A DNA stretch of 34,633 nucleotides. It comes from Betaproteobacteria bacterium (lineage in GTDB: Bacteria; Pseudomonadota; Gammaproteobacteria; Burkholderiales; SG8-41). Shown here one piece after another: positions 6,244-26,510 of this stretch (the stretch's first letter is position 1; each line of letters begins with the position of its first letter). The stretch is taken from assembly GCA_043752435.1 (NCBI GenBank), contig JAYUYQ010000096.1, positions 1 to 34,633 on the forward strand. Reading direction: 5' to 3'. The notes under the pieces were generated by a model. The model worked only from the letters and a program-made list of their open reading frames with translations, was not told the DNA's origin and made no database searches. The translations under genes were made by a program, and so were the position numbers.

Positions 6244-6274
6244 CAAAACAAACGGGGCGCCTGAGCGCCCCGTT
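6244..6274 (-). terminator. Intrinsic terminator of the SWIB gene
   Basis: Minus strand AACGGGGCGC-TCAG-GCGCCCCGTT followed by TGTTTTG, about 20 nt after the stop codon. Confidence 0.8.
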
Positions 6275-15367: not shown

Positions 15368-15398
15368 AAAAACAAAACGGGAGCAGAAGCCCCCGTTT
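15368..15398 (-). terminator. Intrinsic terminator after erpA (possibly bidirectional)
   Basis: Minus strand AAACGGGGGC-TTCT-GCTCCCGTTT followed by TGTTTTT, between convergent anmK and erpA. Confidence 0.75.
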
Positions 15399-18123: not shown

Positions 18124-18158
18124 CAGAGACGACAAAGCCGCCCAAGGGCGGCTTTGTC
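18124..18158 (-). terminator. Hairpin/terminator after rpsI
   Basis: Perfect 13-bp inverted repeat GACAAAGCCGCCC-AA-GGGCGGCTTTGTC (18131-18158) with an interrupted U-tract. Confidence 0.7.
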
Positions 18159-21066: not shown

Positions 21067-21864
21067 TCAAGCCGCCTTTCCAAACAAACGTTCCAGTTCC
21101 GCCCCGGGGTCGGCGGCGCGCATGAACGCTTCTCCGACGAGGAAACCGTGCACGGCGTGGGCGCGCATTTTCTCCACATCCTGCGGCTTGAGAATGCCGC
21201 TTTCGGTAATCACCAGACGTTCCGCCGGGATTTTTTGCAACAGACCCAAAGTGGTTTCGAGGGTCGTCTCAAAGGTGCGCAGATTACGGTTGTTGACGCC
21301 GATCAATGGAGTTTTGAGTGCCAGTGCCGCGTCGAGTTCAGCGCCATCATGTATTTCGACCAGCACCGCCATGCCCAGTTCGTGGGCCGTGGCTTCGAGT
21401 TCGAGCATGCGCCCGGCTTCCAGCGCAGCAACGATCAGCAGAATGCAGTCAGCCCCGGCAGCGCGTGCCTCGTAGACCTGGTACGGATCCATCATGAAAT
21501 CCTTGCGCAGCACCGGCAGCTTGCAGGCGCCACGCGCGGCTTTAAGGTCCGCCAGCTTGCCCTGGAAAAACTGATGGTCGGTCAAAACCGACAGGCAGGC
21601 CGCGCCGTGGCGCTCGTAGGTGGCGGCAATTGCCGCTGGATCAAACTGTTCGCGCAACACACCTTTGCTCGGACTGGCTTTTTTGACCTCGGCAATCACC
21701 GCCGGTTTGCCGGCAGCGATTTTGGCACGCAGTGCACCGGCAAAGTCGCGTGCCGGCGCTGTGGCTCGTGCCGCCGCCTGCATCTGCGCCAAAGACACCT
21801 CTGCCTGCGCCGCACTAATTTCCTGCGCTTTGACTGCGAGTATGCGTTGCAGGATGTCAGCCAT
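21067..21864 (-). CDS. trpC: Indole-3-glycerol phosphate synthase
   Basis: [29 protein letters not shown] and ESGI motifs. ATG at 21864 overlaps the trpD end. Confidence 0.97.
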
Positions 21865-22894
21865 GGTTTTTGGTGAAGGCCACGAACTGATCGAGTTTCT
21901 GTCGCGCCGCGCCACTCTCGAGTACAGCCTGCGCTTTTTTGACACCATCGACCAATGTGAGGGCCAGTCCGGCAATATAAATACTCGCGCCGGCATTCAA
22001 CGCTACGATGTCGCGTGCCGCACCCGGCTTGTTGTCCAGCGCACTGAGCAACATGTCACGCGACTGCTCGATACCTTCAACGCGAATCGCCGCGTTATTG
22101 TGGGTTTTCAGCCCGACATCGGCCGGCGCCACCATGTATTCGCGCACCTGCCCGTCTTTCAGTTCGCTGACCGCCGTCGGCCCGCTGATCGACAGTTCGT
22201 CGAGGCCTTCCAGCCCGTGCACGATCATCACGCGACGGCTGCCCAGTCGCTGCAACACACGCGCCTGTATGCCGACCAGATCGGAATGGAACACACCCAT
22301 CACCTGCTGCTTTGCACCCGCCGGATTGGTCAGCGGTCCGAGGATATTGAATATGGTTTTGACGCCGAGTTCACGGCGCACCGGCGCTGCATGTTTCATT
22401 GCACTGTGGTGGTTAGGTGCAAACATGAAACCGATCCCGGTTGCGGCAAGCGACTCTGCCACGGCCTCCGGTTTCAGGTTGATGTTCACGCCGAGCAATT
22501 CCAATACGTCAGCGCTGCCGGATTTGCTGGAAACCGAACGGCCACCGTGCTTGGCGATTTTTGCGCCGGCAGCGGCAGCAACAAACATCGCTGCCGTCGA
22601 CACGTTGAAGGTATGTGCAGAATCACCGCCGGTGCCACAGGTGTCGATCAGTTCCGGCACGTCGGGCACCGGCACCGCAGTGGCAAATTCGCGCATCACC
22701 GTGGCAGCAGCGGCAATTTCGCCAATGGTTTCCTTTTTAACGCGCAACCCGGAGATGATTGCGGCAATCAGCACCGGCGACACTTCGCCGCTCATGATCT
22801 GCCGCATCAACGACAGCATCTCGTCGTGGAAAATCTCACGGTGTTCGATGATGCGCGCCAAGGCCTCCTGCGGTTTCATCACCGTATCGGTCAT
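21857..22894 (-). CDS. trpD: Anthranilate phosphoribosyltransferase
   Basis: [28 protein letters not shown] and [10 protein letters not shown] motifs. Confidence 0.97.
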
Positions 22895-23460
22895 CGTTTT
22901 TCCTCGAGGAAATTCTTCAGCATCTGGTGGCCATGCTCGGTCAGTATCGATTCCGGGTGAAACTGCACGCCCTCGACCGTCAGCGTTTTGTGGCGCACAC
23001 CCATGATTTCTCTGTCGTCAGTCCACGCCGTCACTGCCAGGCAATCGGGCAGGCTGCTGCGCTCAATCACCAGCGAATGGTAACGCGTTGCCGCAAACGG
23101 CCGCGGCAATCCGCGAAACACCCCTGCGCCCTCGTGCTGGATCGGTGACGTCTTTCCGTGCATCAGCTGCCGGGCATGGACGATTTTGCCGCCGAACGCC
23201 TGGCCGATGCTCTGGTGGCCAAGGCAGACACCGAGAATGGGGATTTTCCCGGCAAATTCCTTGATCAGCGGCACCGAGACGCCCGCTTCGTTCGGCGTAC
23301 ACGGCCCGGGTGACACGACAATGCGTGCCGGCTTGAGCCGCGCAATATCCGCGAGTGTGATTTCGTCGTTGCGGTGCACAGCGACGTCCTCGCCGAGCTC
23401 ACCGAAATACTGCACCAGGTTGTAAGTGAAGGAATCGTAATTATCGATCATCAGTAACAT
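22891..23460 (-). CDS. trpG: Anthranilate synthase component II (glutamine amidotransferase)
   Basis: [29 protein letters not shown] and QFHPES motifs. Confidence 0.95.
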
Positions 23461-23470
23461 GGCGATTCCC

Positions 23471-24961
23471 TCAGTCCAGACCGTGCGTATCTAATCGGGT
23501 ATCCAGGCCGGCTTCGGCGATTTCAGCGGCGCGCAGCAGGGCCCGCGCCTTGCTCTGGGTTTCCTGCCATTCGGCTTCCGGCTGCGAATCGGCAACCACG
23601 CCGCCACCCGCCTGCACATGCAGACGGCCGTCCTTGATCACCGCGGTACGCAAGGCAATCGCCACGTCCATGTTGCCGTGAAACCCGAGATAACCGACGG
23701 CGCCGGCATAAATGCTGCGTTTGACCGGCTCCAGCTCGTCGATGATTTCCATCGCCCGCACCTTGGGCGCGCCCGACACCGTGCCCGCCGGGAATGTCGC
23801 GCGCAGCACATCGATCGCGTTGAGCCCCGGCTTCAGTTTTGCCTCGACACTGGACACGATGTGCATCACATGGGAATAACGCTCGATGATCATCTGCTCG
23901 GTGACTTTGACGCTGCCGGTTTGGGCGACTCGTCCCGCGTCATTGCGACCGAGGTCAACCAGCATCAGGTGTTCGGCGCGCTCCTTGGCGTCCGCCAGCA
24001 ATTCAGTCGCCAGCGCGGCATCTTCTTCCGGTGTGGCGCCGCGGCGGCGCGTGCCGGCGATGGGCCGCACCGTGACCACATCGCCTTCCAGCCGCGCGAG
24101 GATTTCCGGGGAAGCGCCGACCACATGAAAGTCGCCAAAATTGAATGAGAACATGTACGGCGAAGGATTCAACGCACGCAGCGCACGGTAAAGTGACAGC
24201 GGCGAGGCGTGAAAAGGCTTGCTCATGCGCTGCGACGGCACCACCTGCATGATGTCGCCTTCAAATATGTATTTTTTCGCGCGCTCCACCGCTTTGTAAT
24301 AGGCCACCTCGCCAAATCCGGATACTGCAGGCTCGGATTGGGTCGGCGCGCTTTCCGGCAGTTTCACGGGCGCGCGCAGTTTTTCCAACAGCACCGCCAG
24401 CCGCGCACGCGCCGCGGCATACGCACCGGGTTTGCCCGGCTCGGCATACACCACCAGCGACAGCTTGCCCGACAGGTTGTCGACGATGGCAATTTCTTCG
24501 GACACCAGCAGCAGGATGTCCGGTGTGCCCAGTTCGTCGGGTTTGTCGCTGCGGGCGAGCCGTTTTTCGATGTAACGCACGGTGTCGTAGCCGAAATAAC
24601 CGACCAGTCCGCCGCAGAACCGTGGCAAGCGCGGATCGGTCGCGACTTTGAAGCGCTGCAGATAATTTTCGACGAAGGCCAGCGGGTCATCGGCTTCTTC
24701 GCGCAGTGTCTCGACCCCATCACGGACCTCGATACAGCTGTGGTCACGCACTTCGATGCGAGCGGCGGCGGCGAGGCCGATGAAGGAATAACGTCCGAAA
24801 CGCTCACCCCCGACCACCGATTCCAGCAAATAGCTGTACGGCTGGTTGGCGAGCTTCAGGTAGATCGACAGCGGCGTGTCGAGGTCGGCAAAGGTTTCGA
24901 GCACCACCGGCACACGATTGTAACCCGCGGCGGCGAGTCGATCGAATTCAGCTTCAGTCAT
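23471..24961 (-). CDS. trpE: Anthranilate synthase component I
   Basis: [35 protein letters not shown] and GTVSGAPK motifs. ATG at 24961 lies 6 nt after a GGAG. Confidence 0.97.
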
Positions 24962-25014
24962 GTCTTGCTCCACAAATCATTACGAGTACGAAACAACAGC
25001 CCGGCAAAATACGA

Positions 25015-25092
25015 TCAGCAACGCCAATCGCAACGCCAGCGCTGGCCATCAGCGGCAATTTCGGACTTCGTGGAGCAGATCGGAGAAGACAC
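25015..25092 (-). CDS. Putative trp leader peptide, 25 aa (MSSPICSTKSEIAADGQRWRCDWRC)
   Basis: GTG start 2 nt after the gph stop with AAGG upstream, two TGG codons among the last 7 codons, directly upstream of trpE. Too short for the ORF track. Confidence 0.6.
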   Translation of the reverse strand: MSSPICSTKSEIAADGQRWRCDWRC

Positions 25093-25094
25093 GA

Positions 25095-25781
25095 TTAACC
25101 TTTTATAATCAACGGGATACACTCCGTCAGCGCGCCTACTATAGCATCAACATCGAGGCTCTGCACAGCCAGCCCCTCGTTGTAGCCATAGGGCACACAG
25201 AATACCGGACATCCCGCCGCGCGCGCCGCCTGCGCGTCATTCACCGAGTCGCCAATCATCAGCATGCGCTCGGGCGCAACACCAAACTGCGCGCAGGCAT
25301 GCAGCAACTGCATGGGATCGGGCTTTTTGCGCGCCAGTGTGTCGCCGGAAATGGTTTGTGCAAAAAAATGGGCCATGCCCATGCGCTCCAGCAACGGCAG
25401 CGTGAACGCAGCGGATTTGTTGGTAACACAGGCCAGCGGGAAGCCGCCGGCGCGGAATTGCTCCAATCCTTCTCGGACACCGGGATACACCGTCGTGTAA
25501 CGGCCGTTGACTTCGGTGTAAAAACGCTCGAACACCGGCAACGCCTCGGCCATCGCCGCAGCTTCAGTATCGCCGTCGATGTCGCGGGCCAGCGCGCGCT
25601 CAACCAGACGCGGGATGCCCTTGCCGACGAAGCTGCGCACGGCGTCCAGCGGCAGCGGCGCGTGGCCCAGCGCCTCCAGCATCAGGTTGGTCGCAGCGGC
25701 CAGGTCAGGGATCGTATCGAGCAGGGTGCCGTCGAGATCGATCATCACGGCCTGCACGGCAATCGGAAACGTTTTTTTCAT
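25095..25781 (-). CDS. gph: Phosphoglycolate phosphatase (HAD family)
   Basis: DLDGTLLDT, VTNK, KKPDP, IGDS.ND and YGYN motifs. rpe-gph-trpE gene order. Confidence 0.94.
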   Translation of the reverse strand: MKKTFPIAVQAVMIDLDGTLLDTIPDLAAATNLMLEALGHAPLPLDAVRSFVGKGIPRLVERALARDIDGDTEAAAMAEALPVFERFYTEVNGRYTTVYPGVREGLEQFRAGGFPLACVTNKSAAFTLPLLERMGMAHFFAQTISGDTLARKKPDPMQLLHACAQFGVAPERMLMIGDSVNDAQAARAAGCPVFCVPYGYNEGLAVQSLDVDAIVGALTECIPLIIKG

Positions 25782-25847
25782 GATTCAGCTGCAGAAAACG
25801 GCAGGGCAACGCGGCTCACCGGCCGCGACGCCGCACTACCGGAGAGT

Positions 25848-26510
25848 TCAGGATTTGGCGAGCGCTGCGCGCATCGCCGCGATGGTGGTCTTGTAGTCCT
25901 TGGTACCGAATATTGCCGAGCCCGCGACAAAGGTATCCGCCCCGGCTTTGGCGATTTCCGCGATGTTGTCGGCTTTGACGCCGCCATCCACCTCCAGCCA
26001 GATGTCACGGCCGCTCTGATCAATGCGTTTGCGCACGGCAGCGAGCTTGACCAGCGCACCCGGAATGAACGCCTGTCCGCCGAACCCGGGATTCACCGAC
26101 ATGATCAGCACCAGATCAAGTTTGTCGAGCACGTGATCGAGATAATCCAGAGGCGTCGCCGGATTGAACACCAAGCCGGCCTTGCAGCCATGTTCCTTGA
26201 TCAGGCTGATGGTACGATCAATGTGTTCAGACGCTTCCGGGTGGAAGGAAATGATGTTGGCGCCGGCTTTGGCGAAATCCGGCACGATGCGGTCCACCGG
26301 CTTCACCATCAGGTGCACGTCGATGGGCACCTTGACCAGCGGGCGGATGGCCTGGCACACCAGCGGCCCGATGGTCAGGTTGGGCACGTAGTGATTGTCC
26401 ATCACGTCAAAATGGATCAGGTCGGCGCCGGCAGCGACCACCGCCTGCACTTCTTCACCGAGGCGGGCAAAGTCGGCAGACAGGATGCTGGGCGCAAGGC
26501 GATGGGTCAT
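25848..26510 (-). CDS. rpe: Ribulose-phosphate 3-epimerase
   Basis: [41 protein letters not shown] and VAGSAIF motifs. Confidence 0.97.

Follow-up and report, generated by a model that had tools for sequence, protein, structure and literature searches.

A tryptophan-codon leader peptide and a helix closing onto the trpE ribosome-binding site in the gph-trpE spacer of an uncultured Burkholderiales bacterium

In an uncultured Burkholderiales bacterium, the genes rpe, gph, trpL, trpE, trpG and trpD are arranged in one row (Table 1), and the 133-nt spacer between gph and trpE, located on the minus strand of the window (the whole stretch of DNA that was analysed, 34,633 nucleotides), contains an element that can be regarded with high confidence as a tryptophan-sensing trpL leader. 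As a ribosome-mediated tryptophan attenuator, it would correspond in kind to the gph-trpL1-trpE leader of Pseudomonas. For its mode of action a two-layer attenuator is proposed, combining an occluded weak terminator with a lock on the ribosome-binding site of trpE, a reading to which we assign a probability of about 0.45. While the trpL leader type itself is known, its occurrence as a leader family in Betaproteobacteria and the helix closing onto the Shine-Dalgarno (SD) sequence appear to be new. In a search of the open-access literature, no description was found of a trp leader peptide in Betaproteobacteria or of an SD-masking helix in a proteobacterial trp leader.

Table 1. Positions of genes, leader elements and RNA structures in the window
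Feature	Position	Strand	Basis
rpe	26570-25848	minus	NCBIfam match above curated cut-off
gph, phosphoglycolate phosphatase, upstream cistron	25095..25781	minus	NCBIfam NF009695, 2.3e-83, above curated cut-off
AAAGG, SD-like purine run within the last gph codons, 6 nt 5' of the uORF GTG	25099..25103	minus	direct reading
gph stop codon TAA	25097-25095	minus	translation
P1 5' strand UCGUGUCU, including the uORF start codon	25087..25094	minus	MFE folds
Leader ORF, 25 codons + TGA, peptide VSSPICSTKSEIAADGQRWRCDWRC*	25015..25092	minus	GTG 25092 to TGA 25015, direct reading
P2 5' strand, anti-SD segment UGCUCCACGAA, uORF codons 6-9	25067..25077	minus	folds, alignment
P3 5' strand AGUCCGAAAU	25058..25067	minus	pairs with GUUUCGUACU at 24994-24985
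12-bp palindrome GCCAGCGCTGGC	25035..25046		part of hairpin E 5' arm, no separate element
Trp codon 19	25038-25036	minus	leader ORF translation
Trp codon 23	25026-25024	minus	leader ORF translation
Hairpin E, 48 nt, about 20 bp, interrupted, dG -25.5 kcal/mol	24997..25044	minus	folding
U-rich tract UUGUUUCGU, candidate weak termination site, directly 3' of hairpin E	24988..24996	minus	d-score +7.7
Closing helix 3' strand UUUGUGGAGCAAGACAUGA	24958..24976	minus	direct reading and folds
trpE SD GGAG	24971-24968	minus	direct reading
P1 partner AGACAUGA, including the trpE start	24965-24958	minus	MFE folds
trpE ATG	24961-24959	minus	direct reading
trpE, anthranilate synthase component I	23471..24961	minus	TIGR00564, 5e-171, above curated cut-off
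trpG	22891-23460	minus	TIGR00566, above curated cut-off
trpD	21857-22894	minus	TIGR01245, above curated cut-off

A 25-codon ORF with two Trp codons between gph and trpE had been reported in a preliminary description of this DNA, and its presence was confirmed by direct reading. The sequence TGGCGTTGC is present twice in this upstream ORF (uORF), and its GTG is located 2 nt past the gph stop codon. The AAAGG run, which might serve as the SD sequence of the uORF, is retained as a purine-rich run in the sequences of the listed relatives. Translation of the uORF and its cotranscription with gph are presumed throughout.

For comparison, spacers were collected from 80 loci identified via TrpE and from 22 loci of genomes of the same genus; 69 distinct gph-trpE spacers from related Burkholderiales were long enough for a leader, 28 of them from the genus. 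The leader DNA was matched in 19 of the 24 other genomes of the genus. A Trp-containing uORF was identified in 66 of these 69 spacers; it extends far beyond the genus, to relatives with a TrpE identity of about 60%. Trp is nearly always followed directly by Arg and is always located near the end of the uORF, which usually terminates in a W-R-x-(x)-W-R-x motif. For three spacers, no Trp uORF was found by the script used, with TGGCG repeats still visible in at least two of these. Of the 66 uORFs, 41 start exactly 2 nt after the gph stop codon, and within the genus this spacing is found in 26 of 28 cases; this suggests translational coupling to gph. An alignment of the spacers, as had been advised in the preliminary description, revealed conserved Trp codons and a closing helix with some compensatory changes. 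For annotation outside Rfam, the family can be recognised by TAR-TC-RTG immediately after gph, a uORF with Trp-Arg codon pairs, and closure of the 5' end onto a 3' GUGGAG-N6-AUG.

Seven relatives are devoid of the leader (L024, L026, L041, L042, L045, L049 and L062); here, the gph stop codon abuts or overlaps the trpE ATG (at about positions 1490-1515 of these loci), implying that the trpL leader has been repeatedly lost or gained within the group. In a close relative with 95% TrpE identity (L057, positions 1368-1515, the same sequence as in L082), one WRC repeat is lost, which leaves a single Trp codon and a shorter hairpin of -13.5 kcal/mol with an unchanged tail. The uORF of L017 likewise contains only one Trp codon, and eight leaders of the genus are short, with 18 codons. 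In L055 (positions 241-517), about 107 nt with inverted repeats at both ends, CTAGTGCCGTTCCAACT and AGTTGGAACGGCACTAG, are inserted exactly at the uORF stop codon; this insertion separates the leader peptide from the terminator and looks like a miniature inverted-repeat element.

The closest studied counterpart is found in Pseudomonas. According to PMC13434334, trpL1 upstream of trpE in P. aeruginosa encodes RWRWRA and is translated, trpE expression of a miaA mutant was reset when these Trp codons were replaced, and the trpL1 fusion used carried its native promoter. The resemblance of the uORF to this peptide points to a trpL attenuator. In Pseudomonas loci, retrieved via the trpL1 codon string from that paper, gph is followed by trpL and trpE, with a distance of at least about 200 nt between gph and trpL. 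The shared gph-trpL-trpE synteny and the short peptide ending in an Arg-rich Trp motif (RWRWRA compared to RWRCDWRC in the window) place the window element in a known class, of which the Pseudomonas leader is the closest example to have been studied. Further similarities are a GCCGG hairpin arm with a short U tract within about 10-20 nt of the stop codon (CGUUUGC compared to UUGUUUCG in the window) and some complementarity of the 5' leader to the trpE SD (CGUGG to CCACG). However, the Pseudomonas leader is located about 200 nt or more after gph and has its own promoter, whereas the window uORF follows 2 nt after the gph stop codon and a scan of 24500-25900 gave no promoter. The terminator hairpin of Pseudomonas lies wholly past the stop codon, while the hairpin of the window is made from the Trp codons themselves. 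The closure of the 5' onto the 3' end is also weak in Pseudomonas, reaching p<=0.05 in 10 of 28 loci and p<=0.01 in one of 28, which is a hint only. The mechanism had initially been described as different from the enteric model. This is correct in so far as an E. coli-style separate antiterminator is not present, but the leader is no separate invention, since synteny and the W-R motif are shared with Pseudomonas trpL1-trpE.

The pairing of the leader with the trpE SD holds exactly as first described: UGCUCCACGAA (25077-25067) and UUUGUGGAGCA (24976-24966) can form 11 bp, one of them G-U, and the GGAG of trpE lies within this helix. The helix can be extended to about 18 bp, and in the MFE fold an uninterrupted stretch of 18 nt that contains the trpE SD and AUG is paired; in the free RNA of the window leader, the SD is unpaired with a probability of 0.00. 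The whole leader folds with -58 kcal/mol (z=-3.6 compared to shuffles). For the duplex between the first 50 nt and positions -24 to +6 of trpE, -27.9 kcal/mol was obtained, versus a mean of -14.7 for 200 dinucleotide shuffles, so that the duplex exceeds chance (p=0.005). Folding of the RNA, also advised earlier, showed that the leader start and first codons close onto the trpE SD and AUG in the MFE folds of all 28 genus leaders.

The RNAalifold consensus, based on a sequence-only MAFFT alignment, retained the closing long-range helices, plus just two short local helices. Standard pairs occupy 93.3% of the cells of the two closing helices, versus 23-54% when the partners are slid by 1-3 columns; for helix 1 in alignment A1, 95.4% of the cells are paired. 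In P2, column pair 50/172 is GC in 17 sequences, GU in five, AU in five and unpaired in one, and the outer pairs of P3 show compensatory exchanges between AU and GC (AU 14 and GC 8 for one; GC 17, AU 4 and GU 4 for the other). Covariation is inherently limited, because the 3' strand consists of the SD and the start codon. Over the wider family, the duplex of the 5' and 3' ends beats 95% of the shuffles in 51 of the 69 spacers and 99% in 37, relatives with textbook terminators included. Judged from these folds and alignments, the anti-SD closing helix is a real and old, conserved structure, with compatible and some compensatory changes. The leader subtype of the window has two anti-SD-like copies, UCUCC and GCUCC (25082-25086 and 25071-25075), and the L006 leader contains UUCCACC and UUCCACG; the double copies in the window, L006 and L057 leaders are due to the insertion of 9 nt that the other leaders of the genus lack.

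The second structure of the leader is hairpin E. Its 5' arm holds Trp codon 19, its inner stem is formed by Trp codon 23 and the region of the UGA stop codon, and its 3' arm is UGCCGGGCUG. The mid-stem CUGGCG:UGCCGG is paired in 24-26 of the 28 genus sequences. For hairpin E and P3 on alignment A1, a shuffle control was not significant (105/500), because the columns are conserved, and only the slid-partner control separates them. The 12-bp palindrome to which attention had been drawn earlier is present, but not special. As an operator it was rejected: it is a chance occurrence, since the window contains 13 perfect palindromes of 12 bp in all and just one of the 28 genus spacers has this one.

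Whether hairpin E is a terminator has to be considered with care. It is followed directly by the interrupted tract UUGUUUCGU, with five U among the first 8 nt of its tail; this tract overlaps the 3' strand of P3, so that its conservation has a second explanation. Sites were rated with a d-score, a discriminant of hairpin energy and U tail with constants after d'Aubenton-Carafa and Lesnik. The stem of hairpin E ends 35 nt upstream of the trpE ATG. In six distant relatives (L034, L048, L055, L058, L060 and L080), terminators with a GC hairpin and a U5 run and with d of 14-22 were identified, the stem of which also ends 35 nt before the ATG; their tails start with UUUUUCGA, where the window has UUGUUUCGUAC. 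The absence of a GC hairpin with a U run, as claimed in the preliminary description, thus holds for a compact canonical terminator, for which a simple scan of the gph-trpE spacer gave no candidate. It does not hold for hairpin E and its tail, and the term terminator-less is unproven, because the Trp-codon hairpin and the U-rich tract match the position of the clear terminators in the six relatives. Sites with d>=0 were found in 40 of the 66 leaders compared to 23 of 150 random window tiles, and in 35 of the 66 such a hairpin spans a Trp codon. In a second subfamily (L040, L061), the Trp-spanning hairpin has a U5 tail.

The score of hairpin E itself is low. Its d of +7.7 was reached by 11 of 150 random 151-nt tiles of the window (7%), it ranks 35th of the 47 window sites with d>=5, and the likely real terminators of this genome are compact, with d of 24-56. 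Compact GC hairpins followed by U runs are present at 6253-6272 (minus strand, d=56), 15378-15395 (minus strand, d=46) and 18137-18152 (both strands, d=29/24); these are probably genuine intrinsic terminators. Most of the genus has a U6-U7 run directly 5' of the SD, where the window subtype has only AUGAUUUG, and when longer hairpins are allowed, 18 of the 25 other genus leaders score above +7.7 (up to 24). By these scores, the subtype of the window is the least terminator-like in its genus, and as a terminator hairpin E is unconvincing from sequence alone. Across the 69 spacers of the family, U-rich sequence is best conserved immediately before the SD, at -18 to -14 relative to the trpE ATG (U frequency 0.55-0.84). 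In many relatives, this U run follows the large leader hairpin, so that transcripts terminated at this site would end right at the SD.

The influence of ribosomes on both structures was modelled by equilibrium folds in which a 28-nt footprint was masked (-15 to +12 relative to the A site, an assumed size). The probability of hairpin E is 0.92 in the free RNA, 0.00 with the A site at any of codons 16-24, which include both Trp codons, and 0.02 with the ribosome at the stop codon. Because a ribosome at the stop codon also covers hairpin E, termination would need fast release. In folds of the window masked at a Trp codon, no competing hairpin that could be a separate antiterminator appeared; the 5' arm of hairpin E is just covered. 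The SD behaves differently. In the window, its unpaired probability stays at 0.00 with a ribosome at either Trp codon or at the stop codon, and it opens (0.5-0.7) only with a single ribosome that has its A site at codons 4-6. Among the genus leaders, a single ribosome with its A site at a Trp codon left the SD pairing the same as in the free RNA in 28 of 28, and in 26 of 28 the SD was opened by a single ribosome only with the A site in about the first seven uORF codons. The earlier proposal that one stalled ribosome prevents occlusion of the SD is therefore not supported; only a queue of ribosomes opens it, and only partly. The masking results imply that the Trp codons are placed to control hairpin E and not the anti-SD strand, and that the SD lock depends on whether ribosomes are present on the first codons.

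The same masking model was applied to relatives with clear terminators and to a Pseudomonas leader, which mostly keep the terminator with a ribosome on a Trp codon: L058 and L034 lose it at some Trp positions, while L060, L080, L048 and L165 keep it. A search for an enteric-type antiterminator in these leaders by masked folding gave inconsistent results. The model thus fails to reproduce known regulation, and may mislead for the window too.

In the two-layer attenuator proposed here, the 25-codon peptide would be made by ribosomes which finish gph or initiate at the GUG 2 nt on. For the first layer, the Trp codons and the stop codon would act as parts of the strong hairpin E, followed by the U-rich tract. 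With plentiful Trp-tRNA, the ribosome would reach the UGA and depart, and hairpin E would fold and serve as a weak intrinsic terminator, probably halting a part of the polymerases; that polymerases actually terminate here is what we infer from the model. With scarce Trp-tRNA, the ribosome would be held on the 5' arm, hairpin E would be blocked and transcription would go on. An antiterminator would be unnecessary, the ribosome itself covering the arm of hairpin E. For the second layer, the ribosome-binding site would be locked by pairing of the trpE SD and AUG with slightly more than 30 nt at the start of the leader. This lock would be opened only by ribosomes on the first trpL codons, including those presumably queued behind a ribosome stalled at Trp, so that trpE translation would be coupled to trpL translation. 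As a part of the two-layer reading, and with the same reserve, the lock may couple trpE translation to that of both trpL and gph.

The strongest competitor, although distinctly less probable, is a purely translational and possibly Rho-assisted attenuation, in which intrinsic termination plays no role and the trpE SD and AUG are concealed by the closing helix. When Trp runs short, ribosomes would pile up on trpL, the anti-SD strand would be single-stranded and trpE would be translated; otherwise trpE would stay untranslated and the mRNA would be lost by polarity or decay. The closing helix is the best-supported structure of the leader, the terminator score of hairpin E is weak, and the subtype of the window has lost the U run beside the SD, all of which speaks for this explanation. 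The anti-SD strand is located 29-39 nt 5' of the first Trp codon by direct reading, which is where a second ribosome would sit. When ribosomes were stacked at 30-nt spacing behind a stalled one, a queue behind the first Trp codon gave an unpaired SD probability of at least 0.5 in 13 of the 28 genus leaders and of at least 0.2 in 22. In six of the eight short 18-codon leaders, the SD opened (0.45-0.75) with the queue at the Trp codons and not at the stop codon (0.06-0.14). Rho attenuation dependent on a uORF also exists elsewhere (PMC12360218).

However, a lone stalled ribosome was without effect at the SD in all 28 leaders, and in the window the queue gave just 0.18 at Trp codon 19 and 0.54 at Trp codon 23, versus 0.19 at the stop codon. 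The window subtype has UCUCC as a second anti-SD-like copy, the Trp codons are part of hairpin E rather than of the anti-SD strand, and relatives carry the same helix together with clear terminators. The 53-nt spacer after the uORF is highly paired. With 9 C and 15 G, its composition does not resemble the C-rich and G-poor loading sites of uORF-dependent Rho attenuation (tnaC, mgtL, speFL type). It is conceivable, though rather unlikely, that this lineage, and perhaps a large part of the gph-trpL-trpE family in Burkholderiales and Pseudomonas, uses attenuation without antiterminator or intrinsic termination, in which a ribosome queue that forms on trpL under Trp starvation keeps the conserved helix at the SD and AUG open. 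If true, the leader would be a ribosome-traffic sensor acting on translation, and the loss of mRNA only a consequence.

It is improbable that the uORF and the closing helix provide only a constitutive coupling of trpE translation to gph, by unmasking of the ribosome-binding site as at the MS2 coat-replicase junction, with Trp codons of little regulatory effect and Trp control elsewhere, for example by feedback inhibition. The seven relatives without any leader would fit such a role, as would the leaders with just one Trp codon (L057/L082 and L017) and, according to PMC13434334, the transcriptome of wild-type P. aeruginosa, which was unaltered by changes of the trpL1 Trp codons. The retention of Trp-Arg codons near the uORF end in 66 of 69 spacers over deep divergence argues against it, as do the participation of the Trp codons in a conserved hairpin and the response of the Pseudomonas counterpart to Trp decoding in the miaA background (PMC13434334).

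An arrest peptide, in which the C-terminal R-W-R-x-D-W-R-x would sense free tryptophan in the exit tunnel like TnaC, is very improbable: W-R is kept as amino acids while the third position of the Arg codon varies (CGU, CGC, CGG), but the logic would be inverted for a biosynthetic operon, and RNA pairing also explains the UGGCG repeats. Least probable of all is an unrecognised enteric-type attenuator of four segments (1:2, 2:3, 3:4) with separate antiterminator and terminator, which is the general expectation for trpL leaders and to which the separate post-stop sites with d>=0 in just nine of the 66 leaders would conform; in the window, the 18 nt between the uORF stop codon and the U tract leave no room for segments 2 and 3, no terminator-like hairpin was found wholly 3' of the stop codon, and Rfam gave 0 matches to Trp_leader (RF00513) or to any other family at E<=10 (24700-25400).

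The E. coli and Salmonella trpL (RF00513) shares with the window the Trp codons followed by Arg, the location of the peptide upstream of trpE and the stalling ribosome as the sensor. In contrast, the window has no Rfam match, its Trp codons are spaced and not in tandem, it has neither a 2:3 antiterminator nor a compact terminator, and its trpE SD and AUG are paired with the 5' end of the leader. Masking of a ribosome-binding site by long-range pairing that is opened by upstream translation is known from the MS2 coat-replicase 'Min Jou' interaction. Here as in the window, the downstream site pairs inside an upstream translated ORF and would be unmasked by ribosomes there (in the window according to the model), but the masking ORF of the window is an amino-acid-sensing leader of 25 codons. 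For pyrBI, a ribosome on the leader ORF physically blocks the terminator hairpin, no antiterminator being involved, and UTP is sensed through polymerase pausing. The occlusion of a terminator hairpin by the ribosome would be the same in the proposed mechanism, but UTP and not an amino acid is sensed.

In the translational attenuation of ermC and cat, a stalled leader ribosome remodels the RNA and frees the SD. In both cases, pairing hides the SD that serves the regulated gene; however, a lone ribosome at the sensing codons does not free the trpE SD of the window in the equilibrium model. The B. subtilis trp leader forms a TRAP-dependent hairpin that sequesters the SD. Premature termination is combined with sequestration of the trpE SD, with Rho polarity possible, as it would be in the window, but the sensor is a protein binding (G/U)AG repeats and no translating ribosome. 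For ermC, the stall site is located in the SD-masking strand, whereas in the window it is found 30-40 nt downstream of that strand. For B. subtilis, it was reported in PMC12360218 that trpE translation is inhibited by bound TRAP and that this binding also unmasks intragenic termination; ermC is mentioned in PMC2965389.

The enteric four-segment model is the taught basis of leader-peptide attenuation, and the leader family described here, with its many relatives among uncultured Burkholderiales of freshwater and soil, has another architecture: its only strong hairpin includes the sensing codons, an antiterminator is lacking, and the ribosome-binding site of trpE is where the entire leader closes. 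Provided that it is confirmed, such an architecture would be a simpler occlusion logic combined with a lock on the ribosome-binding site, and it could help to explain the mechanism of the Pseudomonas trpE leader.

For the transcription of the locus, the promoter scan gave no sigma-70-like promoter in 24500-25900. The sequence CTGACG-17-TATAAA within gph appeared possible by eye as a promoter, but is poor and not conserved, and was dropped. In the gap between rpe and gph (25799-25841, minus strand), a 43-nt hairpin of -25.2 kcal/mol is followed by GUUUUCUGCAG about 16 nt before the gph start (d=19.4). Partial termination or attenuation between the two genes may occur at this hairpin, which bears on the cotranscription of gph-trpL-trpE with rpe. 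Within the gph coding sequence (25368-25382, minus strand), the compact hairpin AUGGGCAUGGCCCAU is followed by seven U (d=27), and may be due to chance or be an internal terminator. Four metatranscriptome runs, all in the form of contigs, shared only a 0.06 fraction of the sequence words; the contigs of two were without matches and those of the other two belong to relatives at 90-95% over trpE; one contig of 250 nt spans the 3' part of the leader of a relative and trpE.
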